Assembly: GCA_964632135.1 (NCBI GenBank)
Contig: CAZWEI010000002.1
Location: forward strand, 1 to 61,713
Reading direction: 5' to 3'
DNA from: Candidatus Micrarchaeota archaeon
Lineage (GTDB): Archaea > Micrarchaeota > Micrarchaeia > Burarchaeales > JBFMAP01
DNA: 61,713 nucleotides
The position numbers and the translations under genes are program-made. The notes beneath the pieces are model-generated. The model made no database searches, was not told the DNA's origin, and saw only the letters and a list, made by a program, of their open reading frames with translations. Below, piece after piece: positions 5,549 through 51,654 of this stretch; the first letter of the stretch is position 1, and the number at the start of each line of letters is the position of its first letter.

Positions 5549-5599
5549 GATTTGCGCATGCGCGCAAATGGTCCATTTTTCGCGGAGGCGAAAAATTGG
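5549..5599. repeat. Double-hairpin palindromic element, copy a
   Basis: gATTTGCGC-atg-cGCGCAAATGG t CCATTTTTCGC-ggag-GCGAAAAATTGG. Same architecture as the copies at 5800, 22692, 40140, 50996 and 51444. Confidence 0.75.
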
Positions 5600-5625
5600 A
5601 AGGAAAACGACGCGGATTTTATTTG

Positions 5626-5862
5626 ATGGTGTTCGGCGTGCTCCTCGTTATTTTCGGCTTGAGGATGTACATGGACCCGCGCATTTTTGTCATTCTTCTC
5701 GGCGTGGTGTTTTATCTGATTGGTGTAGATAACTACCTTCTAGCGAATTTCAAGGAAAGCATAATTGAAGAGGTCAGGGGCGAGCTCGGGAAGAAAAAGG
5801 CGCAATTTTTGCTACGCAAAAATGCGCATTTGCGCGGAGCGCAAATTGCGCGCGAAAGATAG
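5626..5862 (+). CDS. Small two-TM membrane protein, with its C-terminal tail encoded by a palindromic element
   Basis: ORF 5596..5862. The TTG at 5596 lies inside repeat copy a, so ATG 5626 (MVFGVLLVIFGL) is preferred. There are two hydrophobic spans. The last ~19 aa (AQFLLRKNAHLRGAQIARER) are read from repeat copy b. Confidence 0.4.
   Translation: MVFGVLLVIFGLRMYMDPRIFVILLGVVFYLIGVDNYLLANFKESIIEEVRGELGKKKAQFLLRKNAHLRGAQIARER
5800..5854. repeat. Double-hairpin palindromic element, copy b
   Basis: GCGCAATTTTTGC-tac-GCAAAAATGCGC followed by ATTTGCGC-gga-GCGCAAAT. The 39-nt stretch 5815-5853 matches 22762-22800 apart from 2 compensatory differences. Confidence 0.8.
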
Positions 5863-5875
5863 GATACATAAACTT

Positions 5876-5902
5876 TTTTAGAAATGCTAAGATTATGTTG
5901 GT
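5876..5902 (+). repeat. 27-nt dispersed repeat, copy 1
   Basis: ttttagaaatgctaagattatgttggt. It matches the reverse complement of 9221-9247 at 25 of 27 positions. Confidence 0.6.
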
Positions 5903-6068
5903 TTATTTGGAAACCGCCTAACAAAAAGGGCGTGGTTTAAATACGCGCGCAGTGCAGGCAATGGAAAATGTCAGAAGGCGGATGCGTGAAATAAACTTCT
6001 TTTGGCGCGCTCGCGGACAGTTAAGTATATATAATTTCGAGGGAGTTAAAGAGGTGAAGATGATCTGA

Positions 6069-6734
6069 TTGAGAGGTCTAGTTTTGATTGCATTGATTGT
6101 TCTGATGCCTGCCGTAGTAGCAGGCTTGATAGAGGTACGTTACGTTATTTCTCAACCTCCGGCGCCCGTGGTTTGTGATGTTTTGGAGATTGGTTATTCA
6201 CTTAGTGGCAACGGAACGTATTTTGCTGGAGATAAAATTTTTATAAAAAACATGAGCGTAAGAAATTTACAAGAATTTGACGCAGTAAAGAATATTGAAG
6301 TTAGTGTGGATGTTGTCCAATACCCAGCACGGAATCGGTTTCATCTTAAATCGTTCAATATAACGGCGTTAGGGGGTAAGGAAACGTATATTGTTCCTTA
6401 TGAAAATTATGCTGAAGAACGAGATGGAATTGTGGGTAATTCGTTTAAGATAGAGGAAGGGGGCCGGTACTATCTCGACTTTTTGGTAAGCGGTAATGAA
6501 GAACCGTGCAGATCAGAGTTGTTTAATATATCCACTAGTTATACCAACGAATCTGAAAAAGAAGATTTGTGGCGACAGTTAACAAAACCAGAGACTATTG
6601 CACAGGGCATTATCGGTGTTGTTGTTGCTGGCATCGCCATCATTCTTGAGGTTGTTTTTAAAATTTTTAGTAGAGGGTTGTCGTGGATAATTTCGCGCGC
6701 CAAAAAAATGTTAAGTAGAACCGCGCGTAAGTAA
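6069..6734 (+). CDS. Secreted/membrane-anchored protein with many N-glycosylation sequons
   Basis: 221-aa ORF with a TTG start 11 nt after GAGGTGA. It has an N-terminal hydrophobic signal (LVLIALIVLMPAVVAG), a C-terminal TM (IIGVVVAGIAIILEVVF) and several NxS/T sites. A TATA-like aagtatatataa lies upstream. Confidence 0.6.
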   Translation: MRGLVLIALIVLMPAVVAGLIEVRYVISQPPAPVVCDVLEIGYSLSGNGTYFAGDKIFIKNMSVRNLQEFDAVKNIEVSVDVVQYPARNRFHLKSFNITALGGKETYIVPYENYAEERDGIVGNSFKIEEGGRYYLDFLVSGNEEPCRSELFNISTSYTNESEKEDLWRQLTKPETIAQGIIGVVVAGIAIILEVVFKIFSRGLSWIISRAKKMLSRTARK

Positions 6735-6978
6735 ACCTTCTTTTTAATTTTTATTCTATCAGTAAACCCAACGCGCGCAAAAATGGGGTTTTTCACATCT
6801 TTCGTGGTTTATGGTCGCGCAGGCATTCCTCCACCATCAAAATAATCCAATCAATATCGTGACGATGAACCGCGGGGCGGGGTTCGCTTTTGTGGAGCGC
6901 GCTCGGGTTTATTGAAATTGTAATTTTGGTGCGCGTGCGGTGTATTGGAATGATGTTTTTTGTGGAGGCGTGGTTCGT

Positions 6979-7908
6979 TTAAATTTGGAACCGTTTTACT
7001 GCGTACAGATCTCGTGTGTCAAATATTATAACCCACGGCGAGTCTGGTTTTGGATCGTTTCCAACTGCAACGCACGTGCTCGCGTCTATGTTTATTTTGA
7101 ACACTCCAGAGTATTCAACAGTCCAGTGCATATGGCCGCTGAGCGTGAGGAGTGGCTGGAGATGAAGAATGAAATCGTAAATCGCCTGGCTGCCTGCGTG
7201 ATTTTTATCATCCGCAAAATCAATTGCCTCATCGCCTTTGCCCAACGGCGGCGCGTGGAAAACATAAATTGTGTTCTTGGGGTCTTTTGTGTAAAGCTCC
7301 TGCTCGAGATGTTTGCCTATGCTCAAACTATCGTGAAGGTGGAACTGCATCCTAACCAAATCGCTTCCTTCGCTTTTGTATCCCTCGACAGGAACGCCAT
7401 CGAGATAAAGTTTTGTGGAATAGGCGCCTAAATCGTGCGGCGGGTCTGGTTTTTCCCAATCCTTGAAACGAATGGCGTCTGGATGAGAGATGGGCACATA
7501 GGAACAGCCGACGATGCGCCGATTGTTGATGTGCGCATCCTTGTCATGCAAAAGATGGAAGACCTTGCCGTCGACTTCCTTGTCCTTGAGCAGTTCGAGA
7601 TGCGATTTCGCATCGTCGTTCCCAAGCATCAGCAGTATTTTGCGGTCCTTGTTTTTCTCGTGGAAGCGTATTAGAAGCGGGAGAAGTTCGTTTTCCAAGA
7701 ACGCACGCTGTCTAGTTATCAGTTTGCTGTTTTCCACGCGTGCCGGCTTCCCCACAAGCTGGCCGCTTCCTATGTTCTTCGGGAGGAGGTCGCCGCCAAA
7801 AATGAAGGCCGCGAGGTCGTTTTTCCGCATGTAGTCAAGCGAGCGCAGGAATTGCTCTAGGTTGCCGTGGTTGTCAGAAGTAAAACCTACCCGCATGCGT
7901 TGTCTCAT
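6979..7908 (-). CDS. Calcineurin-like metallophosphoesterase
   Basis: 309-aa ORF with the motifs FTSDNHG, GGDLLPKN, LGNDD and SGHMH in the canonical order. Confidence 0.85.
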   Translation of the reverse strand: MRQRMRVGFTSDNHGNLEQFLRSLDYMRKNDLAAFIFGGDLLPKNIGSGQLVGKPARVENSKLITRQRAFLENELLPLLIRFHEKNKDRKILLMLGNDDAKSHLELLKDKEVDGKVFHLLHDKDAHINNRRIVGCSYVPISHPDAIRFKDWEKPDPPHDLGAYSTKLYLDGVPVEGYKSEGSDLVRMQFHLHDSLSIGKHLEQELYTKDPKNTIYVFHAPPLGKGDEAIDFADDKNHAGSQAIYDFILHLQPLLTLSGHMHWTVEYSGVFKINIDASTCVAVGNDPKPDSPWVIIFDTRDLYAVKRFQI

Positions 7909-7968
7909 AAGATATATGTATTTGCAGGCGCGCGTATTTAATGGTTGGTTATAAATGCTAAGTATATT

Positions 7969-7995
7969 TTAGCGTTTCTAAGAAAGTGTTGGAAG
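7969..7995 (+). repeat. 27-nt dispersed repeat, degenerate copy
   Basis: ttttagcgtttctaagaaagtgttgga, about 19 of 27 identical to copy 1. It forms a hairpin with the preceding aaatgctaa. Confidence 0.35.
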
Positions 7996-8016
7996 AATGT
8001 TAATATACCTGTGCGC

Positions 8017-8049
8017 GCATAACAATTAATCTTATTCTGGAGTGGTTTT
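8017..8049 (+). promoter_or_regulatory. Shared promoter/5'UTR module (GCATAA..TAaTCTTATTCT.GaGtGG)
   Basis: gcataacaattaatcttattctggagtggtttt directly precedes GTG 8050. Related modules precede six other genes. Confidence 0.45.
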
Positions 8050-9219
8050 GTGTCCGAGGAGAGGGATGTTGAGTATCTCATAGGGCTCGTGAGAAGCAGG
8101 GATAAGTGGAAACAGTTGGACGCCATTGTTGGAGCCGAGGAACTAAACAAGAGGTACGGGCGAGGCGCAATGAGCGTGGTTGGCGAGGCGATTGCAAATT
8201 ATGCAGGCGGGGAAGTTTTGAAAAACGCGATGTACGCGGGCATTGAAATCGGGGGCTCGGAAGCTGCCGAGATATTTGCGAGCTTACTACGGAACCCGGA
8301 CATAAACGTCGCGATGGTTGGCGAGATGGGCCTTATGGGGCTTGCGGCAAAGGCTGCGGAGCAGGGCGATCTCGAAACGATGAAGACGATTTTGACTGTG
8401 ATTGGCAGGACATTTTTCGATGAAAGGCGGAAGGACATGCTCGCAATTTATAATTCTTTTGAGATTGGTGGGGTCCTTGAGGAGTTAAAAACGAAGCCGA
8501 GCAGCGAAAAGACAATGGAGGCGGTTTCTGAGTTCGTTCGGAAGGTTAAGGAAAAACTAGCTGGCGGGAACGAGAAGGAGCACCTCAAGGAGATAGGAGA
8601 AGCCAAAAACGTTGATGATTTGATCGAAGTGGTCCTCATAATCTTGAAAAAGCCTGCTGGCGCGAGCGTTTTGGACGCGATCGTCGAGGCGGTTGCTGAA
8701 AAGGCCGACGGGAAGACAAAGGAAATTTTTGAAAAAATGAGTACGGAGCAAGACCCTCGGGTTGCAGCAATGGCTTGCCTGTGCCTTGCTGGAATCGCCG
8801 CACGAGACGGGAGCGGTCTGTTTGTGGACAAATATTTGAAAGCCGCTGGAGAGAAGATGAAGAACTTGAACGATGAGTTCGGCAGCGTAAAGGAGATGGG
8901 CGAAAGGATTCTGTTCAGATATTTGCTGAATTGCGGTGAAGAGGATTTAACGGCCGTAAAGGACAAGGAAACTGCTAAAACGTTTGTGAGTGTGTTCAAC
9001 GTTTTGGGGATGGCGAACCCGAGGAGTGGCGGAAGCAGTAAGGATAAAGAACGCTATTCGGAGCTGAAGAGAATCGCCGATGATTTGAGATTTGCAGTAT
9101 TGGGCGGGGCGAGCGCCGGCGAGATAGTCGAAAAAATAGAGAAGTTTGTAAAGGCACGCGGGCTACGAGAAGAAAAGAAGGGCAGTTCGCGGGCTGGACT
9201 TATGAAAGGGGCGGGCTGA
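8050..9219 (+). CDS. HEAT/ARM-like helical repeat protein (hypothetical)
   Basis: 389-aa ORF with a GTG start after GGAGTGGTTTT. It contains alpha-helical repeats. The C-terminal half (DPRVAAMACLCLAGIAARDG...ILFRYLL...SKDKERYSELKRIADDLRFAVLGG) is paralogous to the gene at 11697..12401. Confidence 0.65.
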   Translation: MSEERDVEYLIGLVRSRDKWKQLDAIVGAEELNKRYGRGAMSVVGEAIANYAGGEVLKNAMYAGIEIGGSEAAEIFASLLRNPDINVAMVGEMGLMGLAAKAAEQGDLETMKTILTVIGRTFFDERRKDMLAIYNSFEIGGVLEELKTKPSSEKTMEAVSEFVRKVKEKLAGGNEKEHLKEIGEAKNVDDLIEVVLIILKKPAGASVLDAIVEAVAEKADGKTKEIFEKMSTEQDPRVAAMACLCLAGIAARDGSGLFVDKYLKAAGEKMKNLNDEFGSVKEMGERILFRYLLNCGEEDLTAVKDKETAKTFVSVFNVLGMANPRSGGSSKDKERYSELKRIADDLRFAVLGGASAGEIVEKIEKFVKARGLREEKKGSSRAGLMKGAG

Positions 9220-9220
9220 T

Positions 9221-9247
9221 ACCAACATAATTTTAGCATTACTAAAA
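9221..9247 (-). repeat. 27-nt dispersed repeat, copy 2 (inverted)
   Basis: The reverse complement reads ttttagtaatgctaaaattatgttggt. It fills the gap between two convergent stop codons and contains the hairpin TTTTAG-cattA-CTAAAA. Confidence 0.6.
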
Positions 9248-9751
9248 TAGTTCTGGCGCTAGTTCCTTTTTGAGCGCTTCTTCATGCTTTTTGATGGACG
9301 CGCGAAGCGCGGTTATTATGAGTGTTAGCTCCGTTGGGTTCTTGCGCTTTTTCTCCGCTTCCGCGCGAAGTTTGGGGACATCCTCGAGCAGAACAATATC
9401 AATATTTTCTTTGAGCGCGCCTAAACGAAGACGTTTTAACTGCTCCTGAATCTCGACGAGCTCGTTTGTCTTATTTCCAACTTCGTTCAGCACTGTCCTT
9501 GCAATCTCATCTCGCGTGTATTTCTTTCCCATTATATTCTGGGTTGCGAAAAAAAACAGTCGCTCATTAACATAATCCATAAAAATTCGCGAGAGAGAAA
9601 GCAGTCCGGCCTCGGTTACCCTTATTGTTGCCCGCCAGTGTATCTCCTGCTTTCCCTCGGCGCGTGGTCCGAGGTGAAGGAAGAAGTCCAATTGTTCGTT
9701 TGGTTTTGGGGGCGGGGGTGTTGCTTTTTTTTCAAGCGTTAGCGAGGCCAT
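9242..9751 (-). CDS. Hypothetical protein
   Basis: 169-aa ORF with coding-like composition. No motif was recognised. Confidence 0.55.
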   Translation of the reverse strand: MASLTLEKKATPPPPKPNEQLDFFLHLGPRAEGKQEIHWRATIRVTEAGLLSLSRIFMDYVNERLFFFATQNIMGKKYTRDEIARTVLNEVGNKTNELVEIQEQLKRLRLGALKENIDIVLLEDVPKLRAEAEKKRKNPTELTLIITALRASIKKHEEALKKELAPELF

Positions 9752-9838
9752 ACCATCCAGTATTATTTATCTTTTCTTTTTTATAATCCTATTGTTTGGC
9801 GCGCAGGGGCGCGCGAAGGAGAGAAAGGTGAGTCTGGG

Positions 9839-10552
9839 ATGAACTTGAGAGCGGTTAACCGTTGCCTTCAGCTCGCTGCCAGCGGCATCGAGACCGAACA
9901 GCTCAGCGCCATCAGAGAAGCTAGGGGGTTTACTGGCGAGCATCCCTTCGCTGTTTTTGCAACTGTTACGAAGCAACCCGCAAATGAGAAGGTTTTGGAG
10001 GAAGTTGTGAAGGCGGCCGTGGGGGTTGGCGGCTTTCACGCGACCAACATGTTTGAGGTATTAGGCAACGACGAAAAGTGGAGGGGCGCGTGTGTTGCGG
10101 GGTTGTTTCTACTTGCTGAAAGATACGCACGGGAATTGGGGCGCAGGAGCATTGACACTAATTTTGATGCACTTGAGAGAATATTGGGCTACAATGCGTT
10201 GTATCGGACCAAAGAGTATAGAGACCTAGTTGACCGGGTGGACCATATATTTTATCTCTACAACGCACAAAGAATTTTAGGTGAGTTGGAGCGTGGTTTG
10301 TCTGCGCAATCCCCTGTGTTCGACTTTGACCACTATTTTACGGCTTTTTTATTGGCTGTACATCGAGCTAAAGAGGAGGGCACGCCGGCGTTGGATAGGG
10401 CAGATGAAACGGTCCGCGCGGAGGTTTACGCTAAAACTGAAGAATTTGAGTTGGTTTATCGTGGAAAGAAGAGAATTGAGGAAGTTTTCAAAACCGTGCC
10501 AAGAGGACTGAACGCGAGGCGGGCTAGGAAGCGAGAGGGTATAACGACGTAG
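9839..10552 (+). CDS. Hypothetical protein
   Basis: 237-aa ORF. An SD-like ggagagaaaggtga lies upstream of the ATG. No motif was recognised. Confidence 0.55.
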   Translation: MNLRAVNRCLQLAASGIETEQLSAIREARGFTGEHPFAVFATVTKQPANEKVLEEVVKAAVGVGGFHATNMFEVLGNDEKWRGACVAGLFLLAERYARELGRRSIDTNFDALERILGYNALYRTKEYRDLVDRVDHIFYLYNAQRILGELERGLSAQSPVFDFDHYFTAFLLAVHRAKEEGTPALDRADETVRAEVYAKTEEFELVYRGKKRIEEVFKTVPRGLNARRARKREGITT

Positions 10553-10570
10553 TTTAGTGGGGAGTTGAAC

Positions 10571-11683: not shown

Positions 11684-11696
11684 GCGCATCTCTGTT

Positions 11697-12401: not shown

Positions 12402-12436
12402 AAAAACCACCTTGTAGAATAAGTAATAGTTTATGC
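12402..12436 (-). promoter_or_regulatory. Shared promoter/5'UTR module
   Basis: The minus strand reads gcataaactattacttattctacaaggtggttttt, followed by the GTG. Confidence 0.45.
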
Positions 12437-12465
12437 ATGAACGGATTTATATTACTTGCGCGCGA

Positions 12466-14727
12466 CTAAACCGAGCGCAACTCTGCTTCGACGAAGTCCT
12501 TGAATTTTTGCATCCAAATTGGCTCCACGTCTTTGTAATCGATCGAGCCGTTCTCCTGCTCCTTTTCAGCGAGGAGGAGGTTCGCCTCCGAGTTGCATTT
12601 GAGCACGAAATCTATTTCCGTGAGTTGCGGCGCGTTGAGCGCGTTCGAAGCCTTCGCTATGTCCGAGTAAATCTTGCCCTTGAAAAATGCCTGGAGTATG
12701 TTTTGAAGCGGGGTGAGGCCTGCCTCCTCGCTGCGGCGCTGGAGGACCGGGGGTATGTAGTTCACGTTCAGGTTTTCCTCGAGACTCGCGATGCTCGTGT
12801 TGCTCAGCGACCACGCGGACGCCTCGGGGTTCGCGATGAAGTTGCATTGAAGAGAGGAGGTTTCTGGCGAAGTGCCGCGCTTGTACGTGAAAAGTTCTAT
12901 GAACTGGCGGCGCTCTGCGTCGGTTTCGAGGAGTTGCGCGAGAACGCGGTGGACTGGTCCTCTTCGCTTGAATTTTATTTTTTTCAGGAATGAGAAGCGC
13001 TCTGTTGTGAAAAGCGAGGCAGCAGGAACGCCGAAAACAGTCTCGAGGCGGTCCTGAACGTCCTTTATGCTCTGGCCGTGGAGGTTGTAAAGACAGAAAA
13101 CGCCGGTTTGCGTGTTGAGCAGATTGATGAGCCCCTGTATCGCGAGGCGAGAGCGGAGCTCGTTCACGATGAGGCAGGAGTCGCCCATTCTCAGCGAGGC
13201 GTTCGCCATTGTGAGAAGAGACAGTTCTTTCGAGGATTCTGCTTCCTGATCAGAACTTTGAACGTGCATCGCGCCTATGTGGAACCCGCGCTTCCGGTAC
13301 GCGCGCACAGGAATCTCCTCTATGTCCTGAATCGGGAGTATGCGTTTCTTCGTGCCGATGGAGATTATTTTCGCTGCCGTAAACGCGGTTTTTCCAACTC
13401 CTTTCAAGCCGAGAACTGCTTCGGAGCAGCCGAGGCCGACCATCAAATCGTCGTAGCCAGCGTAGAACGGCGTGAGGCTGCAGAGCTGGATGTACTGTGG
13501 GTACGTGAATGGCGTTTCCTTGTTGACGCGGATTGCGAGTTGGAGTTCGCCGAAAGTCGCGGGCGGGCCCTGTATGTGGCAGCGCAGCCCGAGGCGGTTG
13601 AACATCGTGTCGAGAATCGGGTTCTTGAAATCGAACCTGCGCGATTCTTTCATCGTTGCCGCGATGTTGTGGACCGCGCGCTCCAGAAGTTCCTTGTTGT
13701 ATCTCCAGAGCGTGTGGCACAAACCGAACTTCGCGTGTTCGATGTAGATTGGCGAGTTCTCGCTGTCGAGATAGATGTCGGTTATGTTGTTCCTGTCGAG
13801 CGCCATGTTTTCAATCGGGCTTCCGAGACCGACGACCCAGTTCGCCGCCTCCCTGCCCATCGCCATCGCCTCCTGGAGGGAAAGCGGAACGCCCTGCGTG
13901 GCGGCCATGTCGATGAATTGCTGGCGGTACGCGCGCACCTTAGCATCATACGCAGCCGCGGGGTCTATAACCTCCTCGCGAGAGGACATCCCCACGTCTA
14001 TCGCCTGTTTGAGCATTTTCTGCAGTTGCGGTGAGAGGCTCTGGATGAGGCTGTTCTCGTGTGTGTAGAGGTTCGCCTCGGATTTTTCGAGCGAGTAGAG
14101 TTTTGCGGTTATTCCAAACCCCAAATCATAAACCGCGCCAGGCTCTGTCAATGGTTTTGCATCGGGCGGGAGTTCGAACATCAGCGAGTCGATGAACTGG
14201 AAACTCTTCAGCCCCGCAAGCGAGGCGAACGCCGCGCGCACGTCCTTGTATTTTGAAACGAGTTTGTAGAACTCCGTCGAGGAAATTTTTTCGGAGACGT
14301 TTGCGAGATATGTGGAGAATTTGTGATAGCCGTCCATGAAAATGCCTTTCGTCGGCTCTGGCTCGTGGTAGTCTTTTATCATCTGGAGCGTGAGGACTGG
14401 GCTCATGAAAAGCGCTTCGAACATTTTTTCCAGGAATTTCTTCCGTATGGGGTGGTAGTCGTCTTCCTTGCGGCCGTATGATGCTGGATCGGACATGACG
14501 CGCTCGACTTCGCGGATCAGGTTTGCGTATTCCATTATTACGCGCGTCTTTTCCTCGTTGAACTCGATTATTGTTTCCTCCTCGTATCGCATCGTCTTGA
14601 TGTCGACGTCGGTGAGCATGCTGAGGTCGTGGAGCTGGCTGTTAATGCATTTCGCGCTGAACATCTCGAAAGGGCAGGAGGCGCAGTCCATTACCGCGCG
14701 CGTCCCCTGTACCGAGAGCTTGCACAT
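12466..14727 (-). CDS. Type II/IV secretion (PilB/VirB11/ArlI-family) ATPase, long form
   Basis: 753-aa ORF with Walker A GLKGVGKT, the RMGDSCLIVNELRS (Asp/Walker B box region) and TGVFCLYNLHG (His box). It has a long N-terminal extension with a Cys cluster (CASCPFEMFSAKC). Confidence 0.85.
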   Translation of the reverse strand: MCKLSVQGTRAVMDCASCPFEMFSAKCINSQLHDLSMLTDVDIKTMRYEEETIIEFNEEKTRVIMEYANLIREVERVMSDPASYGRKEDDYHPIRKKFLEKMFEALFMSPVLTLQMIKDYHEPEPTKGIFMDGYHKFSTYLANVSEKISSTEFYKLVSKYKDVRAAFASLAGLKSFQFIDSLMFELPPDAKPLTEPGAVYDLGFGITAKLYSLEKSEANLYTHENSLIQSLSPQLQKMLKQAIDVGMSSREEVIDPAAAYDAKVRAYRQQFIDMAATQGVPLSLQEAMAMGREAANWVVGLGSPIENMALDRNNITDIYLDSENSPIYIEHAKFGLCHTLWRYNKELLERAVHNIAATMKESRRFDFKNPILDTMFNRLGLRCHIQGPPATFGELQLAIRVNKETPFTYPQYIQLCSLTPFYAGYDDLMVGLGCSEAVLGLKGVGKTAFTAAKIISIGTKKRILPIQDIEEIPVRAYRKRGFHIGAMHVQSSDQEAESSKELSLLTMANASLRMGDSCLIVNELRSRLAIQGLINLLNTQTGVFCLYNLHGQSIKDVQDRLETVFGVPAASLFTTERFSFLKKIKFKRRGPVHRVLAQLLETDAERRQFIELFTYKRGTSPETSSLQCNFIANPEASAWSLSNTSIASLEENLNVNYIPPVLQRRSEEAGLTPLQNILQAFFKGKIYSDIAKASNALNAPQLTEIDFVLKCNSEANLLLAEKEQENGSIDYKDVEPIWMQKFKDFVEAELRSV

Positions 14728-21450: not shown

Positions 21451-22824
21451 ATGACCCAGATGGAACTTGCAAAAAGAGGCGTCGCCACCCCCGAGGCCAA
21501 GGCGATAGCAAAAAAAGAAAAGATAAATTTAGACAAACTCGCGCGTTCCATCGCGCGTGGCCGAGCGGTCGTTCTTTCTAGTGGCGTTTTTGTTTGTGGC
21601 GTTGGCGAAAGACTTGCAACGAAGATTAACGCGAACATCGGCGCGTCCCCGGATTACGTCAACGTAAAGGAAGAAATTAAAAAATTAAAAACCGCGGTTG
21701 CCGCTGGCGCAGACACCGTGATGGACCTCAGCATCGCCGGCCCGCTCGACGACATTTTGTGCGCGGTGATAAAAAATGCAAAAATTCCTGTGGGAACTGT
21801 CCCCATCTACCGGGCGGCGCTCGCAGCCACGCAACGCGGTGGAAAAATTTATGATATGAGCGAGGACGAGATGCTCGCCGCGATACAAAAACACATCAAA
21901 CTCGGCACCTCGTTTCTCACGCTCCACGCGGCGATAACGCGGGATGGCATCCGCCTCGCGAGAAAAAGGGATTTGGGGATTGTAAGCAGGGGCGGGTGCT
22001 TTCTCGCGACTTGGATGCTCCACAACAAAAAGGAAAACCCGCTCTATAAAAATTTCGACTACATTCTCGAAACGGCGCACGAAAACGACGTGGTTATAAG
22101 CATAGGCGATGCGCTCAGGCCAGGCGCGCTCAGCGACGCGAACGACGCCGCTCAAATTCACGAATTAAAAATTCAGGGCGAGCTCGCGAGGCGCGCGCAC
22201 GCGGAAAACGTCTCCGTAATCTGCGAGGGCCCGGGCCACATGCCGCTTAGCACGATCGCGCAAAACGTCGCGCTCCAGAAGCGCATCTGCAGGGGCGCGC
22301 CCTATTACGTCCTCGGCCCTCTCGTCACCGACATCGCGGTCGGCTACGACCACATAAACGCCGCGATAGGCGGCGCGCTCGCTGCAGCGGCAGGCGCGGA
22401 TTTCCTGTGCGTGGTCACCCCGAGCGAGCACGTCGCGCTTCCAACCGAAAATGACGTGCGCGAGGGCGTGATCGCCGCGAAACTCGCCGCGCACGCAGCC
22501 GACATCGTGAAACTCAAACGCTCGAAAATTGATTTTGAGATGGGGAAGGCGCGCGCGCAACTCAACTGGGCGAAACAATTCTCGCTCGCGCTCGACCCAG
22601 TGCGTGCGCGCGAGTACAAAAAAAGACGAGGCACAAAGAGCCCCGCGTGCAGCATGTGCGGGGATTTCTGCGCCATCAAACTGATGAGGAACGCGCAATT
22701 TTTGCTTCCAATTTTTCGCTTCGCGAAAAATGGACATCTTCGCGCGACGCGCGAAGCTTGTCGCAAAAATGCGCATTTGCCCGGAGGGCAAATTGCGCGC
22801 CAAACGAAACAGCAATCTTTTTAA
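21451..22824 (+). CDS. thiC: Phosphomethylpyrimidine synthase ThiC, with a repeat-encoded C-terminal extension
   Basis: Typical ThiC blocks are present (DTVMDLS, IGTVPIY, GDALRPG, EGPGHMP, YVLGPLVTDIA.GYDHI, CSMCGDFCA). The last ~40 codons are read through palindromic element copy c. Confidence 0.9.
   Translation: MTQMELAKRGVATPEAKAIAKKEKINLDKLARSIARGRAVVLSSGVFVCGVGERLATKINANIGASPDYVNVKEEIKKLKTAVAAGADTVMDLSIAGPLDDILCAVIKNAKIPVGTVPIYRAALAATQRGGKIYDMSEDEMLAAIQKHIKLGTSFLTLHAAITRDGIRLARKRDLGIVSRGGCFLATWMLHNKKENPLYKNFDYILETAHENDVVISIGDALRPGALSDANDAAQIHELKIQGELARRAHAENVSVICEGPGHMPLSTIAQNVALQKRICRGAPYYVLGPLVTDIAVGYDHINAAIGGALAAAAGADFLCVVTPSEHVALPTENDVREGVIAAKLAAHAADIVKLKRSKIDFEMGKARAQLNWAKQFSLALDPVRAREYKKRRGTKSPACSMCGDFCAIKLMRNAQFLLPIFRFAKNGHLRATREACRKNAHLPGGQIARQTKQQSF
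22692..22800. repeat. Palindromic element, copy c (nested/composite, 109 nt)
   Basis: The outer arms GCGCAATTTTTGC ... GCAAAAATGCGC enclose two extra hairpins (CCAATTTTTCGC-ttc-GCGAAAAATGG and CTTCGCGC-gac-GCGCGAAG). These are followed by ATTTGCCC-gga-GGGCAAAT. Confidence 0.8.
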
Positions 22825-25397: not shown

Positions 25398-25512
25398 ATA
25401 AACTACTTACGCATTTGGGCGTTTGCAATTTTTGCACGCAACGCAGCGCGCGCGATTTTGTTTCCTGCGCGCCGCGGCAAACCGATCAGCAGTTTTGTTT
25501 GAAGGTGGTCGC

Positions 25513-38748: not shown

Positions 38749-39504
38749 CTAAACTTTTTTCGTGACGTTGAACGGCGCGCTAACGAGTTCCACCTCCGCG
38801 CCTTCTGCCGAAGCATAGAGAAGGACCCTCTTATCAACGTCGATCCATTCGATGGCTTCAGCGCTCGCCCGCTCCGTGCCCTCCTCAACCACGCGCGACA
38901 CAATCCTAACCTTGAACGCGCGCCTTCCTTTCATCTCCTCAATTTTTTCAACAGAATAATCCGAGACTAGCGTGCGTCTGAGGTTCATAATGAGCGCGCT
39001 CGTGGTCGTGGTTATGTTCTGCTGCCAGGTCCATCCCTCCCCGAGTGCGAGCATCCATGGCTGGAAAAAGACCACGCCCATACTGGTCAACTGCGTCTGC
39101 TCGGTAAGCGCGAGGCTCTCGTTCCCGATTCTCACGCTCGCGTCCTTCGCCTCGCCAGTGCGCGCGTCCAGGCATAACTCATAGAAATTCCCAGACGCAT
39201 CGGCGCTCGCGTTCAGGCTGCGCGCGTGCATGCCCACGCAATTCTCGCCTTGAAAAACCGAGTACTCGTCCTCGCGATAGAGACTGTCCAGCCTCGTCCC
39301 GTAAACATACCTCTCTCCAGGCAGCAGCCTCACCTCGCTGTTTTTTTCAAGCGGCGCAGAGCTGATCTCGTTGCGCACGCTGACTCCTGAGAAAAAGAAT
39401 AGCGCTGCAACGACGAAAAACGCCACGAGGCACGCGAGCAGGATTATCTGCCAGTCCCCGAGCGCCACCTGCCTCCCGAAAATTTTGAAGACCCTAACCG
39501 TCAT
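38749..39504 (-). CDS. Membrane-anchored extracytoplasmic protein (hypothetical)
   Basis: ATG 39504 lies 5 nt after AGGTGG. It has an N-terminal TM (IILLACLVAFFVVAALFFF) and overlaps the upstream gene end by 11 nt. Confidence 0.6.
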   Translation of the reverse strand: MTVRVFKIFGRQVALGDWQIILLACLVAFFVVAALFFFSGVSVRNEISSAPLEKNSEVRLLPGERYVYGTRLDSLYREDEYSVFQGENCVGMHARSLNASADASGNFYELCLDARTGEAKDASVRIGNESLALTEQTQLTSMGVVFFQPWMLALGEGWTWQQNITTTTSALIMNLRRTLVSDYSVEKIEEMKGRRAFKVRIVSRVVEEGTERASAEAIEWIDVDKRVLLYASAEGAEVELVSAPFNVTKKV

Positions 39505-40039
39505 CCCTTCCACCTGTTAAACGTCCAACCGGAACCGTGGTTGCCTCGCCGGCATGGCGCACGAAACTCACCAGCCGCGGGCATATCAAAAACACGAACG
39601 TGCAGTTCCCTGCCAAATGCAGCATGGTGAACGGGATCTGCCCAAGGACCGCAGCCCATAGCGGCATGCCGAACTGCAGCGAAAACCCAAGCATCGTCAG
39701 CAGGTCGTAAACTATCGTGAGCATTGCCGCGATGAGCGTCATCTCCGTCCTGCTATACTTTTTCCCACGCATCCCCAAAACGCCGGCGAGGAGGCCCACG
39801 ACCCCATACGACGGCGCGGTATAAAGGCTCCAGGGACCGACGAAGGCCATATAAACATCATACGCAAACCGCGCCAGACAGCCAACGAAAAAGCCGGAAA
39901 CCGGCCCGAAAACAAGCCCTGCGCAGAGCACAAACGGCATGAGCAGCTCTATGTTCGGCGGCGCGCCGAGCGCCTTCACAAAGACCCCGCTTGAAACCGC
40001 GACAGCCAAAAGGCCGAACGCCACGATATGCCTGTTCAT
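39494..40039 (-). CDS. Polytopic membrane protein (ECF-transporter S-component-like by composition; uncertain)
   Basis: About 181 aa with 5-6 hydrophobic spans. Start set at ATG 40039. Confidence 0.5.
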   Translation of the reverse strand: MNRHIVAFGLLAVAVSSGVFVKALGAPPNIELLMPFVLCAGLVFGPVSGFFVGCLARFAYDVYMAFVGPWSLYTAPSYGVVGLLAGVLGMRGKKYSRTEMTLIAAMLTIVYDLLTMLGFSLQFGMPLWAAVLGQIPFTMLHLAGNCTFVFLICPRLVSFVRHAGEATTVPVGRLTGGRDDG

Positions 40040-40110
40040 TGCCACCACCCATCAGTATTCTGCTATCAATTTAAAAACCATGCGCTGAACTGCTCTGTAG
40101 AAAACCTTGC

Positions 40111-40268
40111 GAGCGCAGCCACGCCGCGGCAACTGCGCTCCAATTTTTGCCTCGAGGCAAAAATGGACCATTTGCGGTGAAGCCGCAAATTGGTCGAGCG
40201 CAGTTGGTCCGCCTCGAAGCGGACCTGCCCGTTCGAACGGGCAGCCGCGTGTTGGCGGCGGCTGCGCT
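40111..40268. repeat. Nested multi-hairpin block containing palindromic element copy d
   Basis: Outer stem GAGCGCAGCC/GGCTGCGCT. Inner perfect 10-bp stem AACTGCGCTC/GAGCGCAGTT encloses CCAATTTTTGCC-tcga-GGCAAAAATGG and CCATTTGCGG-tgaa-CCGCAAATTGG (40140-40193). Three more hairpins follow: GGTCCGC-ctcgaa-GCGGACC, TGCCCG-ttcgaa-CGGGCA and GCCGC-gtgttg-GCGGC. Confidence 0.8.
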
Positions 40269-40361: not shown

Positions 40362-41708
40362 ATGGGGGGACATCCTGCGGTCGTGGCCGCGCTCCTGATA
40401 CTTGTCTGCGTCTTCGTAAACAGCGCGAGCGCCATCTCCCTGTATGCGAGTTCCGGCCCGTACCCGGCGGACTGTCCGATAATAATCAAGGGCGAGCCAG
40501 GCAGCACGATCAGCATATACTCGATGAAGGACGAGTACATCGGGAACTGCATCATCCCGTTCTACTCCGATTACTGTGTGTTCAGCCTGAACGAAAAATA
40601 CGGCGACGGCGCATATAGGATAACCGACGGAAGCTCGCATCTGTTCATCTCATTCTCAAAAAGCGCTCCTTGCCTGAACTGTTTCATCGACGATAAGCCC
40701 TACCCGCGGGGCATGGAAAGCCCGTCGAATCCAAACGAGTTCTGCGATGTTTCCTCGCCCTGGGCCTGGAGCACAAGGCCGCTTGCCGGCGTCGTCGTTT
40801 CGCCAGCCTCGATAACAGTCGGCCAGAACCAGATGTACATTTTCAGGGCCTATGGCTTCGACGTCAACAACAACACGGTTCAAATAGCGCCGGAGTGGAA
40901 AAGCGGCAATCCGCAGGTAGGCGAAATAAATTCGCACGGCGCATTCACCGCAAAAACCAGCGGCACAGCCATCATAACCGCGACGTACAACGGCCTTTCC
41001 GCGAATTCCAGCGTCGAAGTCGTCGTGATAGCGCGGCCAGACTATGAAAAAATCCTGTCCCTGAGCGCCCCGGGCGCTGCCCGATTCGGCGACACACTGC
41101 TGGTGCGCGTATCGAGACTCGACGGCGCGCCGTTTGCCAACAAGACCGTGACGATACTCACCCCGAACCAGGATATCACCCTGAACGCACTAACCGACGA
41201 AGATGGGCGGTTCGTTTTCAAGGTTCCAGAGCCCGGCGTCTACACGTACGAGGTTCAGGGTTATTCATTTGAAAAAACCGTTTCGACATTTGTGGAGGAG
41301 CAGCCTCCTACCGCGTGCCAGGTCTGCGCGAACGCGACATGCCCGAACCAGACAAACGCGTGCCAGGCGCAGCAACTCCAGCAACAGCCGCAGCAGCCGA
41401 TAACCTCGCGGATTACCGCTTATTTCGGAAGGATGAGCGGCTATGCGCCGGTCGCCATGGCGGTCATCATCCTGCTCGCGTTCGTTTTCGGCTATCTGCT
41501 TTTCGTAAGATACCGCGGCAGCAAGGCAGAAGCGGAATCCTCGCAATTTGAAGGGCTCTCCCCCGAAAAAGGCGAGGAAACAAAGATATGGACGGTTGAT
41601 GACTTTGAAACGCCGCCGCTCTACGCGCCTCCGAAAACGCTGGCCGCGCCGCATTCTGCAAAAACGAAAAAGGCCAAGCGCGCAACAAAAGGCAAGCCTA
41701 GGCGTTGA
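40362..41708 (+). CDS. Surface protein with Big_2 (Ig-like) and carboxypeptidase-regulatory-like domains, a C-terminal TM and a Lys-rich tail
   Basis: Signal peptide; a Big_2 pattern (VVVSPASITVGQNQ...AFTAKTSGTAIITATYNGLSANSSVEVV); NKTVTILTPNQ...TDEDGRFVFKVPEPGVYTYEV; a Q-rich linker; and the TM AMAVIILLAFVFGYLLFV. Confidence 0.7.
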   Translation: MGGHPAVVAALLILVCVFVNSASAISLYASSGPYPADCPIIIKGEPGSTISIYSMKDEYIGNCIIPFYSDYCVFSLNEKYGDGAYRITDGSSHLFISFSKSAPCLNCFIDDKPYPRGMESPSNPNEFCDVSSPWAWSTRPLAGVVVSPASITVGQNQMYIFRAYGFDVNNNTVQIAPEWKSGNPQVGEINSHGAFTAKTSGTAIITATYNGLSANSSVEVVVIARPDYEKILSLSAPGAARFGDTLLVRVSRLDGAPFANKTVTILTPNQDITLNALTDEDGRFVFKVPEPGVYTYEVQGYSFEKTVSTFVEEQPPTACQVCANATCPNQTNACQAQQLQQQPQQPITSRITAYFGRMSGYAPVAMAVIILLAFVFGYLLFVRYRGSKAEAESSQFEGLSPEKGEETKIWTVDDFETPPLYAPPKTLAAPHSAKTKKAKRATKGKPRR

Positions 41709-41713
41709 ACGCA

Positions 41714-45586: not shown

Positions 45587-45623
45587 TCCATCACATCACT
45601 CGCCGACCGCAAACGTCCTTTCG

Positions 45624-46487: not shown

Positions 46488-46530
46488 TACCGCGAACTGG
46501 TTTGTCGTATCCGTGTTAATCCCCTCCCCC

Positions 46531-47058: not shown

Positions 47059-47121
47059 AAAACCACCCCGGTCGCGATTGATAATTCTAACACTTCAATT
47101 TTAAATTCCTGGTTTATAAAT

Positions 47122-47883: not shown

Positions 47884-47927
47884 TTCAACTCCCGACAACA
47901 ATTAAACGCGCGCGCATATAAACGTTA

Positions 47928-49109: not shown

Positions 49110-49142
49110 AACATCACTGCAACTAACCGCAAACAACTAAAA

Positions 49143-49718
49143 CTAAGCGCCGACAAATTTAAAAATTGCAATGCACGCGAGCGGCACGACAAAATTGTCG
49201 TCAAAATCAATCCTGAAACTTTCGATGAGCGCGCACAGCCCTGCCGCGAGCACGCCGACCGCGCCAACGAAGAAATACGCCGGCAGCCCGCCCACGAAAA
49301 ACGCGGCCGCGCCCTCGACCGTCTTCTCGCCGTTGTACGGAAGCCTCATCCTTCCAAACTGTCCGACGAGGGTGGAAAGCCCGTCCCCGAGCGCGAGTAT
49401 CACGAGGGACGCGTACATGAAATTATAGTCACGCAGGAACGAAAGTATGGCGAGCACTCCGAGAACATACCAGAATGCTCCGTGCGCAGGAAGGCTGTCA
49501 GGCCGTTCGAGGAGCGCGAGCGCCTCGTCAATGAACGGCAGGCGTTTTTCCTTCAGTTTCAAATCAAGCAAAATTACCCCGATCAAAAACAATCCCACGA
49601 GAAGCATCTCGAGCCTCTCGATGCCCGCGCTCCCGTACGCCGACAGGAACACGTGCAGAAGAAGCATCACGCCGAGCCCGAACGCCATGTGCACGAGTTG
49701 CCTTCTAAATTCAAACAT
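49143..49718 (-). CDS. CTP-dependent polyprenol (dolichol) kinase-like / cytidylyltransferase-family membrane protein
   Basis: Polytopic, with LALGDGLSTLVGQFGRMRLPYNGEKTVEGAAAFFV (the GD...G...KT.EG signature of the family). Start set at ATG 49718. Confidence 0.65.
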   Translation of the reverse strand: MFEFRRQLVHMAFGLGVMLLLHVFLSAYGSAGIERLEMLLVGLFLIGVILLDLKLKEKRLPFIDEALALLERPDSLPAHGAFWYVLGVLAILSFLRDYNFMYASLVILALGDGLSTLVGQFGRMRLPYNGEKTVEGAAAFFVGGLPAYFFVGAVGVLAAGLCALIESFRIDFDDNFVVPLACIAIFKFVGA

Positions 49719-49731
49719 TACAAAACCTCTT

Positions 49732-50217
49732 CTAGATGCCTCTCTTCCAACCGCGGTTGTAGAACACCTTGTCAACGAAATAATAGCACGTCATTCCAAT
49801 CACGATGCCGCCCGCAATCTGCGTGATGGTGTGCACTCCAAGGTAAAGCCGGCTGAGCGAGACGAGCGCGCCCAATATGAAATAAAACGCGAAGAGAGGG
49901 GTGCCCGTGCTCGCTGCTATGAAAAAGAACGATATGGCGGTGTGCCCGCTCGGGAAGCCGTAATCGCCAGGGCACTCAGCGCCGAACCTTACCACCCCGC
50001 AATCCCGCGCCTCCTGGTAGTACATTTTTATTGCGTACGTGGCTGCGAGCAAAATGACAAACGAAACGAGTATGCACCTCGCCCTGCACCGCGCGCCCCA
50101 CAAAACAACGAGCAGGAACAGCGCGACGACCGTGTACCAGATTAACGTGTTATTGAAAAGAAGAGCTAGCCACGTTAACGCCGGCACATCAAGGCCTAGA
50201 AGCGCGTGTGTTGGCAT
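49732..50217 (-). CDS. PAP2-family phosphatase (polyprenyl-diphosphate phosphatase-like)
   Basis: KxxxxxxRP-like region, PSGHTA, and SRLYLGVHTITQ (SRxxxxxH). It is a membrane protein. Confidence 0.8.
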   Translation of the reverse strand: MPTHALLGLDVPALTWLALLFNNTLIWYTVVALFLLVVLWGARCRARCILVSFVILLAATYAIKMYYQEARDCGVVRFGAECPGDYGFPSGHTAISFFFIAASTGTPLFAFYFILGALVSLSRLYLGVHTITQIAGGIVIGMTCYYFVDKVFYNRGWKRGI

Positions 50218-50232
50218 GGCATCCTTCGCTCC

Positions 50233-51654
50233 TCAACAACAGTAAAGGTTTTTTGGAATCTTCCCTTCCTCGATTTCGCCGAACGGGTTTCCGTACTTCC
50301 GCACGTTTTCCATCATCTCCTTGTTCGTCTCTAGTTCGAACCCGCCCTTCACCATGCGCGCGCGGAGTTTTTTAATGAGCGCTGGAATGTCGATTTCCGC
50401 AGGGCAGTCCTCCTTGCAGCCCGAGCACGCGAGGCACAGGTACGCGCGCAAGTTGTTTTTATCGCGCGGGCTTGCTATCACGTGCGAGATGAGCCCCTTC
50501 CCACCGGCGCGCTCGAACCCGAAGAACTCCGCGAGCTGGTGGTACGAGGGGCAGGCGTTATCACAAGCACCGCAGTTTATGCAGTACATCAGTTCGCCCA
50601 ACCCCTCTCTTATCATCTCGCTCCTTCCATTGTCAAGCAGAACTAGGTAAACCTCCTTCGCGCCCTGCGCGCCGAGCACTGCTTTGTTCTGGATGTCCGC
50701 GGTCTTGCTCGGTCCGTTTATTATGCTTATGTACACCGGAGCCTCGCGCCCGGTTCCCCAGATCGCGTCGCACTTTGCGACGAGAAGCGCGTCCTCGAGC
50801 GTGGGAACGAGCTTCTCAAATCCCGCGACCACGATGTGCTTGTCAGGATAGCGCGAAACGAGCGAGATGTTTCCCTCGTTCTCGAGCACAACAATATTTC
50901 CGTCGCTCGTGAGCGCGTTCGCACCCGTTATCCCTATCTTGCTTTTCGTTATCTTCTCGCGCAAATACCCGCGCGCAAATCCAACAATCTCTTCCGCAAT
51001 TTTGCCTTCGGCAAAATGCGGCGCATTTTCGCTCCGCGAAAATTGCGCCGGTTTCGCGCTCACCTTCGCGCCGAATTTCTCCCTGAGCGCGCTCGCCATC
51101 TCCTCTGGGGTAAGATGCATCGCCGGAATTACCGGGTGTATCCCCTCAACACCGCAGACCTGCGTCAGGAAGTCGCCGAGGTCGGTTTCAACAATTTCAA
51201 CCCCGCACTCCTCCAAAAACTTGTTAAGTTCGATTTCCTTGCACGCGTTCGATTTTGATTTCACGGCAAGTTTTTCTTTCCCGATGATTCCCAGAATTAT
51301 GTCGCGCGCATCCTCCGCATCCTTCGCCTCGAGCACGCGCACGCCGTTCCTTTTGAAGTTTTCAATCGCGGTTTTTTTCAACCTCTCGATATTCTCGATT
51401 GCGCCTTTCTTTATCGCGCGCAGTTTCTCGCGCAGCGCGTCCTCCAATTTGCGCTTTGCGCAAATGGACCATTTGTCCTGCGGGACAAATTGGTCGTCAA
51501 TTTTCGCGAGTATTGCGTCCCTGTTCTCGTTGGTTTCCCTGATGACCTTTAGCATCGCCTCCCGGAATTTCTTCTTCTCCGCGAGCTGCCTCTCCACTTC
51601 TTTTACTATTTCATCCATCGCATCGCCATCCAGCCCACGAACCCATATACTCAA
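50233..51654 (-). CDS. LutB-like iron-sulfur protein (LUD domain plus 2x[4Fe-4S]) carrying two intragenic palindromic elements
   Basis: KSKSNACKEIELNKFLEECGVEIVETDLGDF, IGITGANALTSDGNIVVLENEGN, CINCGACDNACP and CLACSGCKEDCP. Confidence 0.8.
   Translation of the reverse strand: MSIWVRGLDGDAMDEIVKEVERQLAEKKKFREAMLKVIRETNENRDAILAKIDDQFVPQDKWSICAKRKLEDALREKLRAIKKGAIENIERLKKTAIENFKRNGVRVLEAKDAEDARDIILGIIGKEKLAVKSKSNACKEIELNKFLEECGVEIVETDLGDFLTQVCGVEGIHPVIPAMHLTPEEMASALREKFGAKVSAKPAQFSRSENAPHFAEGKIAEEIVGFARGYLREKITKSKIGITGANALTSDGNIVVLENEGNISLVSRYPDKHIVVAGFEKLVPTLEDALLVAKCDAIWGTGREAPVYISIINGPSKTADIQNKAVLGAQGAKEVYLVLLDNGRSEMIREGLGELMYCINCGACDNACPSYHQLAEFFGFERAGGKGLISHVIASPRDKNNLRAYLCLACSGCKEDCPAEIDIPALIKKLRARMVKGGFELETNKEMMENVRKYGNPFGEIEEGKIPKNLYCC
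50996..51049. repeat. Double-hairpin palindromic element, copy e (intragenic, 54 nt = 18 codons)
   Basis: GCAATTTTGCC-ttc-GGCAAAATGC and GGCGCATTTTCGC-tcc-GCGAAAATTGCGCC. On the minus strand it is translated as ..AQFSRSENAPHFAEGKIA.. Confidence 0.75.
51444..51493. repeat. Double-hairpin palindromic element, copy f (intragenic)
   Basis: CCAATTTGCGC-tt-tGCGCAAATGG a CCATTTGTCC-tgcg-GGACAAATTGG. On the minus strand it is translated as ..DQFVPQDKWSICAKRKL.. Confidence 0.75.

Follow-up and report, generated by a model that had tools for sequence, protein, structure and literature searches.

Eight short elements, each 45-55 nt long and made of two adjacent hairpins, are scattered over a 61,713-nt stretch of DNA from Candidatus Micrarchaeota archaeon (Micrarchaeota, DPANN; contig CAZWEI010000002.1). 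This whole stretch is called the window below. The locus raised the question of what these elements are and how they came to lie between genes, within genes and within one another. An initial annotation had pointed out six of the loci and had proposed a mobile element, resembling repetitive extragenic palindromic (REP) sequences or a miniature inverted-repeat transposable element (MITE), or else a sequence maintained for its structure. We found that the elements are mobile. They probably constitute a lineage-specific, non-autonomous element. Most likely an enzyme acting in trans moves it in the form of single-stranded DNA, and the best candidate for this enzyme is a Y1 (HUH) transposase of the IS200/IS605 type.

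Structure of the elements in the window

Two adjacent hairpins were seen at all six named loci when the sequence was read. The shared architecture that had been described was retained, but its full symmetry was not, because a canonical strand exists. On this strand yTC was followed by the element, CAATTT(TT)-core-loop-core'-(AA)AAATGG A CCATTTG-core-loop-core'-CAAATTGGTC, and then by G. The consensus of 30 oriented copies was yTC CAATTT(TT)-core-loop-core'-(AA)AAATGG A CCATTTG-core-loop-core'-CAAATTGG TC G. It contained two unpaired extra bases, one A in the 5' arm of the first hairpin and one T in the 3' arm of the second. Copies of the family were 45-58 nt long, and more than 35 further copies were found in related loci. 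Besides type a there was a type-b subtype with GCG/CGC feet in place of C/G (window 5800, 22693 and 50995; L016), the boundaries of which were ambiguous by 1-3 nt. More divergent variants were located at L001 18174, L006 2974 and window 55527. A covariance model, R1, recovered all type-a and type-b copies and told the strands apart by about 20 bits. The elements of the window were as follows.

5545..5598 (-): type-a element, 54 nt; R1 64.2 bits, E=2.5e-11; DNA fold -18.4 kcal/mol, z=-5.9
5800..5853 (+, weak assignment): type-b element GCGCAATT...AATTGCGCGC, 54 nt; R1 53.1 bits on the + strand and 49.4 on the - strand
22693..22800 (+): composite of two elements, 108 nt, recognised from the sequence; hairpin-within-hairpin fold, z=-4.9
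40141..40195 (+): type-a element, 55 nt; R1 77.5 bits, E=4.7e-14
50995..51048 (+): type-b-like element, 54 nt; in-frame 18-residue insert AQFSRSENAPHFAEGKIA in the LUD/LutB-like gene 50233-51654 (-)
51445..51495 (+): type-a element, 51 nt; in-frame 17-residue insert in the LUD/LutB-like gene 50233-51654 (-); R1 68.1 bits, E=3.9e-12
55527..55571 (no strand assigned): divergent double-hairpin variant, 45 nt, with the perfect hairpins TTCGCGAC aaa GTCGCGAA and TTTGGAAGC gaa GCTTCCAAA; R1 10.3 bits

The element at 5545-5598 was intergenic, with the open reading frame (ORF) 5275-5529 on one side and the small ORF 5596-5862 on the other. Its 3' foot was degenerate and read CAAATCAGTC in place of CAAATTGGTC. 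The element at 5800-5853 coded for the final ~18 residues of ORF 5596-5862, which has 88 aa and gave no Pfam family match. The locus 22692-22800 had been taken for one copy. Its double hairpins were confirmed, but a single long copy was not found; instead, one element was nested in the loop of another. The outer element is of type b and consists of 22693-22708 and 22763-22800 (54 nt). The inner element (22709-22762, 54 nt; R1 48.8 bits, E=3.4e-8) begins directly after the TTC loop of the first hairpin of the outer one. This composite replaced the normal end of ThiC by a tail of ~44 residues, and the Pfam ThiC domain stopped at residue 413 of 457. The element at 40141-40195 was intergenic, lying between an energy-coupling factor (ECF) S-component gene (39494-40048, -) and ORF 40362-41708 (+). 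It split a 22-nt perfect palindrome, made up of CAACTGCGCTC and GAGCGCAGTTG, at its exact centre (40130-40140 and 40196-40206), and together with these outer arms it folded at -32.5 kcal/mol (z=-8.9). The 45-nt variant at 55527-55571 had been overlooked in the initial annotation. It formed an in-frame 15-residue insert near the C-terminus of the UbiD-family gene 54222-55649 (+) (Pfam UbiD_N/UbiD/UbiD_C), and its ATTCGCGAC/GTCGCGAAT hairpin recurred within the family arrays of L028.

The window was searched exhaustively for perfect hairpins with a stem of 7 bp or more and a loop of 3-7 nt. Twelve had the form ATTT(T)(T)+G/C core ... core'+(A)(A)AAAT, and none of these twelve lay outside the six named loci. 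In 202 kb (window plus related loci) there were 67 such hairpins, compared with ~0.25 in composition-matched shuffles. A strict double-hairpin pattern (CAATTT N10-20 AAATGG N CCATTT N10-20 AAATTG, 24 specified bases) matched the window twice and matched none of 100 dinucleotide-preserving shuffles. Folding as single-stranded DNA gave z values from -4.7 to -6.9 at five of the six window loci. The weakest fold of the set belonged to the 5799-5854 copy (z=-2.75), where 4 of 200 shuffles folded equally well. Possible degenerate copies had been suggested at 2290-2345, 6771-6795 and 25411-25439; these gave no unfiltered covariance-model match even at E<=10, and the suggestion was given up. A scan of the window against Rfam at the gathering threshold returned one tRNA only and no family for the elements.

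Conservation of pairing in the stems

Both stems are kept perfectly paired while their G/C cores differ among copies. Standard pairs occupied 96.6% of 621 cells in the 30 copies. The value for shuffles was 82.3%, and none of 500 reached the observed one. Pairing fell to <=48% when the partners were slid by 1-3 columns. Double-sided changes were counted in 72 cells, where 21.5 were expected, and both sides had changed in 10 of the 21 pairs. This compensatory covariation agreed with the earlier statement that the inner cores vary and yet stay complementary. A particular case had also been reported, a 39-nt match between 5815-5853 and 22762-22800. It contained exactly two differences (positions 20 and 26), and these were the partners of one stem pair.

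A further pair of copies from different genomes was examined, at L011 1500-1870 and L013 5390-5470. They shared ~12 nt of identical flank per side (CCCCTGCGGTTC ... GGCACTGGAAA) and nothing further out. The cores of their first hairpins differed by a double compensatory change, CGC/GCG versus GCC/GGC, and each copy was located ~25 nt upstream of a TATA-like box. As an orthologous pair for compensatory change in situ they were ruled out, because only the ~12 nt of flank were in common.

Insertion into new sites

Presence/absence polymorphism had been proposed as the test of mobility, and it gave a clear result: relatives had empty sites for three in-frame insertions. Two contigs were used for comparison, L001 from the metagenome-assembled genome (MAG) MAG141, which was syntenic with window 42.3-61.7 kb at 77-82% DNA identity, and L002, at 73-77%. 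The 51445-51495 copy was absent from the LUD/LutB orthologue in L001 and L002 and was present in no other aligned homologue (eight homologues). Its site read CATCCTC^GTCCAT when empty and CCTC[CAATT...AATTGGTC]GTC when filled. The 50995-51048 copy was common to the window and the 89%-identical relative in L001, and it was absent in L002 and in all other homologues. In this case the empty site was CTCCTC^CGGTTT and the filled site was TCTTC[CGCAATT...AATTGCGC]CGG. The 55527-55571 variant was absent from the UbiD gene of L001. Over ~19 kb of synteny, the only intragenic indels of at least 30 nt were the two LUD-gene elements and the 45-nt double hairpin of UbiD. In addition, L001 carried two extra copies in an intergenic region of 330 nt, which measured 118 nt in the window. 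These results showed that the elements have inserted into new sites, that is, that they are mobile.

The LUD-gene copy shared with L001 was identical at 54 of 54 positions, compared with 86% identity in the rest of the gene. No other 54-nt stretch of the LUD gene exceeded 52/54 between the window and L001 (P about 3e-4). This identity may have come from selection on the folded form, from hairpin-templated correction or from recent exchange. Identity of copies across species was likewise noted for mitochondrial double-hairpin elements (PMC10085805).

Choice of target and orientation

The insertion sites were compared among 27 type-a copies found with a relaxed pattern. In every one of them TC stood directly 5' of CAATT, the end was GGTC or GGTT, and the next base was usually G. 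The orientation relative to the asymmetric TC was therefore identical in 27/27 copies. Empty sites had one TC and filled sites had TC at both sides, which meant that TC was duplicated or that the 3' TC was carried by the element.

When [CAATT..GGTC] was deleted, 10 of the 27 sites regained a perfect hairpin of 5 bp or more whose loop held the junction, compared with 5.8% of control TC^G sites (P=1.4e-6). When related loci were collapsed the count was 8/21 (P=1.3e-5). In the case of window 40141, removal of the element left a 9-bp hairpin, CAACTGCGC TC^GA GCGCAGTTG. Other restored hairpins were CTAGC GTC^ GCTAG (L016) and GTCGGCTC TC^GA GAGCCGAC (L020). At window 22709 and in L017, L021 and L028 the host hairpin was an older family copy, with the insertion right after its TTC loop. 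Insertion is thus often into the loop of a pre-existing hairpin, earlier copies included, and this gives nested elements. Since the host stems were unrelated in sequence, the target appears to be recognised as a structure.

Several elements were nested or abutting within ~200 nt at L028 377-575 and L021 550-760 (metagenome 3300032046), on contigs of 1-1.4 kb; this suggests that dense arrays of elements break assemblies. Another kind of hairpin was also observed near the elements. Perfect G/C-rich hairpins with TCGA-containing loops adjoined the 40141 element at window 40206-40244 (GGTCCGC ctcgaa GCGGACC and CTGCCCGT tcga ACGGGCAG). Opposite window 47930, L001 had a 120-nt hairpin-rich intergenic insertion (~12810-12930) that included CCAGCGC TCGA GCGCTGG. 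These hairpins may be a second family, or landing sites for the elements.

Elements within coding sequences

Copies in genes were found in LUD/LutB (two), UbiD, the C-terminal tail of ThiC (two, nested), a YggS-like PLP protein (L003), a DHH protein (L004), a HAD hydrolase (L005) and Cgi121 (L017; two, nested). The host genes were confirmed by Pfam (LUD, ThiC, UbiD, Ala_racemase_N, DHH, HAD, CGI-121). All ten intragenic copies with a measured length were divisible by 3 (45, 51 or 54 nt), compared with 12 of 21 others (Fisher P=0.015). All six frames were open in 19 of 27 distinct copies, with a mean of 5.5 open frames. Same-composition shuffles had a mean of 2.2 open frames and were open in all six in 0.1% of cases; the values for random window segments were 3.8 and 5%. 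The near-absence of stops in six frames, together with a length that is a multiple of three, therefore would allow the element to survive inside genes as a peptide of 15-18 residues. The five type-a copies in gene bodies all had one orientation, and four were read in the hydrophilic frame DQF....K(W/M)....KLE. In the remaining copy, the inner one of Cgi121, the frame was different. Shared lengths, orientation and frame are the pattern expected of selection on translated inserts, and they argue against removal as introns.

Distribution of the family

A genome scan for further copies had been proposed, and such copies were found in related genomes only. The strict pattern, for which ~0.5 chance matches were estimated in 596 Gb, gave 18 loci among 185,579 species genomes. 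All were in three Micrarchaeota MAGs (MAG141, 10; PPR_0038, 7; WY4.bin88, 1). A metagenome scan gave 12 matches. Four had real hairpins, and their source was the same sample as that of L002; the remaining eight were set aside as chance matches on AT-rich contigs, without hairpins. Because the strict-pattern matches sit in three MAGs and one metagenome, the family appears to be confined to a narrow archaeal clade. No retrieved copy was identical to those of the window, and the window genome is therefore a further member. Two pattern scans of viral contigs gave no match, so that a viral or plasmid-like origin was unsupported. The comparison genomes were fragmentary MAGs or metagenome contigs. 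The window had a density of 8 elements per 61.7 kb; all other loci except L001 and L002 were fetched for carrying a copy, and their densities are biased.

The protein of the LUD/LutB-like gene (50233-51654, -) was 89% identical to a protein from a 'Candidatus Micrarchaeota archaeon' MAG, and its other homologues were from DPANN archaea and Patescibacteria. Housekeeping genes of the window included those for ThiC, class I lysyl-tRNA synthetase, TFIIE alpha, tRNA-intron endonuclease, RNase HII and UbiD, and mevalonate-pathway neighbours were present in L001. Window 1-10550, which holds two of the elements, had nine consecutive ORFs (160-826 residues, including 2408-4888) without a Pfam or NCBIfam family, and its G+C content was 0.45-0.50, compared with 0.50-0.58 elsewhere. 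A 753-residue protein at 12466-14727 weakly resembled secretion ATPases of the FlaI/VirB11/TadA type (NCBIfam, with scores far under the cut-offs) and had no Pfam match.

A larger structured repeat of ~200 nt was observed in PPR_0038. It had at least four copies (L012 ~1520-1760, L015, L018 and L019), each with one double-hairpin element, more hairpins and TATA-like boxes. One copy was just upstream of a GAPDH gene, two were at contig ends, and a diverged version was present in L009 and L010.

Mechanism of movement and alternative explanations

Because the targets are structural and the orientation is tied to an asymmetric dinucleotide, we infer that the element is handled as folded single-stranded DNA, with a Y1 transposase as the putative enzyme supplied in trans. 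Transposases of the IS200/IS605 type act by 'peel-and-paste'. In such a reaction the flanking TC would be the transposon-adjacent motif and GGTC the transposon-encoded motif. The folded hairpins would be needed in the reaction, and this would explain the spread of structure-preserving variants only. Strand bias relative to replication is a hallmark of the IS200/IS605 family. Its members insert 3' of a short transposon-adjacent motif and carry a similar transposon-encoded motif at the right end; they make no target duplication, excise without a scar and need stem-loops at the left and right ends, and gene-less miniature derivatives are known (PMC10055086).

A lead towards such an enzyme was obtained in PPR_0038. 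At L009 5662-5853 (contig JBFYLO010000006.1) there was a 63-residue truncated IS200-like Y1 transposase (Pfam Y1_Tnp, E=1.8e-4, 22.0 bits, cut-off 23). It was located by tblastn with IS608 and ISDra2 TnpA sequences, used as a lead only, and was then confirmed as a truncated Y1 remnant by Pfam and by a full-library search. The closest relatives of P0121, a near-identical 57-aa form (98%), reached E=3.7e-9 among 1.8 billion representatives. The six best relatives that were tested were all Y1_Tnp, and three matched the essentially full-length profile. A family-type hairpin, GCATTTTGC acg GCAAAATGC, was located ~50 nt upstream of the remnant (region 5593-5853).

Several points weigh against single-strand transfer by a Y1 transposase. 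The remnant is sub-threshold, truncated and dead, has lost the HUH motif and has no demonstrable link to the elements. Full-length relatives of the remnant (P0122 and others) occur in multiple copies in another archaeon, which is AT-rich and has no family copies. A partner was sought through these homologues, but they belonged to an IS200-like element of that unrelated archaeon with different hairpins of its own, and the link was dropped. In the ~200 kb examined there was no intact transposase with the two hairpins at its sides, and no transposase was found by Pfam and NCBIfam among ~45 of 73 greedily selected window ORFs. In IS608-type elements the cleavage sites are ~10-19 nt from the hairpin feet, whereas here the sites abut the feet, the motif is only two bases and the targets are hairpin loops. 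The TC rule was not clear in the type-b copies at window 5800 and 22693. It is equally possible to read TC...TC as a target-site duplication of 2 bp, and a double-strand mechanism would then be favoured. Finally, the 54/54 identity of the shared LUD-gene copy is a hint that more than simple selfish decay has been at work, in the form of some constraint or homogenisation. Given the dead lead gene, the lack of an intact partner in ~200 kb and the differences from IS608-type elements, membership of IS200/IS605 is not claimed.

Other mechanisms of movement were considered against the same data. A conventional double-strand MITE, with CCAATT/AATTGG terminal inverted repeats and a DDE transposase whose 2-bp staggered cut duplicates TC, would account for the inverted-repeat termini, for TC at both ends of every type-a copy and for the single TC of empty sites. 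A staggered cut at an asymmetric dinucleotide should permit both orientations, however, while all 27 copies share one. The target sites were alike in structure (hairpin loops) and not in sequence, and no DDE transposase was seen in the sequence examined; we regard this mechanism as unlikely. If the element were a small double-stranded circle integrated by a site-specific (for example, serine) recombinase, an asymmetric 2-bp TC core would account for its constant orientation and for the TC at either side. Its joined-end site, AAATTGG-T-CCAATTT, would mirror the internal AAATGG-A-CCATTT; both junctions are near-perfect palindromes about one central base, and many targets are palindromic. These target palindromes are unrelated in sequence, though, and would be unrecognisable to a sequence-specific recombinase, double-stranded DNA of 50 bp is so stiff that a circle of it would be an unlikely intermediate, and no recombinase gene was found nearby. 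A circle of this kind was accordingly judged quite improbable. An RNA intermediate seemed to us about as improbable. Reverse splicing or retro-insertion was proposed for the double-hairpin elements of Allomyces mitochondria on the basis of absent flanking duplications (cited in PMC2800124). In the present case there was no unambiguous target duplication either, and the type-a copies in gene bodies all have one orientation with respect to the host transcript. Selection for one hydrophilic, cysteine-free frame (DQF..KW/QM..KLE) explains this common orientation equally well, and the copy in the ThiC tail is oppositely oriented. No reverse transcriptase was seen, and intergenic and loop-nested copies suit targeting at the DNA level.

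Two further explanations were considered. The elements might be primarily a functional structured motif under selection and not selfish mobile DNA; for example, proteins might bind to it, or it might act as an archaeal terminator in both directions or stabilise RNA. The 54/54 identity of the shared LUD-gene copy next to flanks at 86%, the perfect hairpins across divergent copies, the T5 runs on both strands of the first hairpin and the position of several copies directly behind genes or directly ahead of TATA-like boxes would agree with this. It leaves unexplained the recent in-frame insertions in the middle of conserved enzymes, the nesting and the avoidance of stops in six frames, and no Rfam family matched. 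We hold it to be very improbable as the whole explanation; a function could have been added secondarily to the elements. The window also encodes an unusually long (417-residue) tRNA-intron endonuclease with N-terminal and catalytic domains (25423-26676). Given the strong secondary structure of the elements and their bulged bases, intragenic copies might be introns of the bulge-helix-bulge (BHB) type cut by this enzyme. This reading was rejected as hardly credible. Each of the 10 intragenic copies is a multiple of three in length and has no stop in the frame of its host gene, and neither property would be required of an intron that is spliced out. Moreover, identical elements are intergenic, and the LUD-gene flanks form no BHB exon-exon helix.

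Besides movement by a Y1 transposase of known type, a more far-reaching proposal was entertained as a tentative possibility. The elements might represent an undescribed system, a ~50-nt single-stranded DNA transposon of two hairpins that targets extruded hairpin loops including its own ('Russian-doll' nesting) and is stop-free in six frames for the coding DNA of gene-dense DPANN genomes. It might be driven by a divergent Y1/HUH protein or by a host replication or repair enzyme, with stems kept by the mobility requirement or by hairpin-templated correction.

Comparison with known elements

In behaviour the closest known system appears to be the Rickettsia palindromic elements (RPEs), in form the mitochondrial double-hairpin elements (DHEs), and in likely chemistry the miniature IS200/IS605 derivatives and the REP system with its REP-associated tyrosine transposase (RAYT). 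The family departs from each of them in defining features. RPEs are likewise lineage-restricted palindromic repeats, both intergenic and fused in frame in conserved genes that are seemingly left intact, and they are regarded as selfish DNA of small, gene-dense genomes (PMC2229807, PMC10969869). However, RPEs are 105-146 bp long, form one long stem-loop, encode a conserved peptide and reside in alphaproteobacterial hosts (Rickettsia). The Micrarchaeota elements have 45-58 nt, two short hairpins with variable G/C cores, six-frame stop avoidance, TC-coupled orientation and insertion into hairpin loops, and there is no sequence similarity between the two.

DHEs of Allomyces and fission yeasts, with related hairpin-forming elements and G+C clusters, are also short and made of two adjacent hairpins. 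They show presence/absence among close relatives, have no clear flanking duplication, occur in genic and intergenic positions, and some copies are identical across species (PMC10085805, PMC2800124). They belong to the organelle genomes of eukaryotes, where they are GC-rich islands in AT-rich DNA, and have no sequence relation to the present elements; the likeness is one of form only. In-frame colonisation of many protein genes, a TC rule or loop nesting is not described in these two papers (PMC10085805, PMC2800124).

Miniature IS200/IS605 derivatives (PATE-like) have left-end and right-end stem-loops, insert strand-specifically 3' of a short motif and carry a similar motif at their own 3' end. 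No target duplication is necessary, and archaeal examples exist, for example in Haloquadratum (PMC10055086). The two end stem-loops have a counterpart here in the two strongly covarying hairpins, each with a conserved bulge of one base, which may take a corresponding part in transposition. PATE-like elements are larger, and their cleavage sites, 10-19 nt from the hairpins, are read by internal guide sequences. In contrast, the whole Micrarchaeota element is ~50 nt, its motif is just TC, its targets are hairpin loops, and no partner transposase was found in ~200 kb.

REP sequences and REPINs are also short palindromes, often in inverted pairs, and are kept as hairpins. Movement of REPs is attributed to a relative of Y1 transposases that is encoded once per genome. 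They are bacterial and essentially extragenic and have a conserved GTAG head, and REPIN repeats pair with each other. In the Micrarchaeota elements each hairpin is self-paired, the consensus starts with TC followed by CAATTT, without GTAG, and copies lie inside genes. A single-copy RAYT gene flanked by copies was not found in the window or in related loci, which are parts of incomplete genomes. Membership of the REP family, one part of the initial proposal, was therefore not supported, because there is neither a GTAG head nor, in the window and related loci, a RAYT gene. The MITE-like part applies loosely. The elements are short, multicopy and without coding capacity, with presence/absence at orthologous sites (three empty sites), and no parent insertion sequence matching the CCAATT/AATTGG termini was found in the sequence examined.

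Palindromic repeats readable as protein have reportedly been described in a different archaeal phylum, in a study cited in PMC2229807. Literature searches on palindromic or hairpin elements in Micrarchaeota or DPANN returned nothing relevant. The unusual features of the present elements are their extreme smallness, two self-paired hairpins with free cores, TC-linked polarity, nested targeting of hairpin loops and six-frame stop avoidance.

Implications for DPANN genomes

The genomes of DPANN archaea are among the smallest and the most gene-dense of cellular organisms, and to our knowledge mobile DNA in them has been little described. The present family would be a selfish element that can persist in a small gene-dense genome because it is very short, folds into hairpins and can be read in all frames. 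Its copies added peptides of 15-18 residues to core enzymes, namely LutB-like, UbiD, ThiC, YggS-like and Cgi121 proteins. In these lineages, indels made by the elements can cause errors in alignments, phylogenies and gene calls. As several copies were at contig ends, the elements probably also break metagenome assemblies. The enzyme that mobilises mitochondrial DHEs is not known (PMC10085805, PMC2800124). The TC-linked orientation, the preference for hairpin loops and the compensatory stems found here give a handle on the movement of short hairpin elements.

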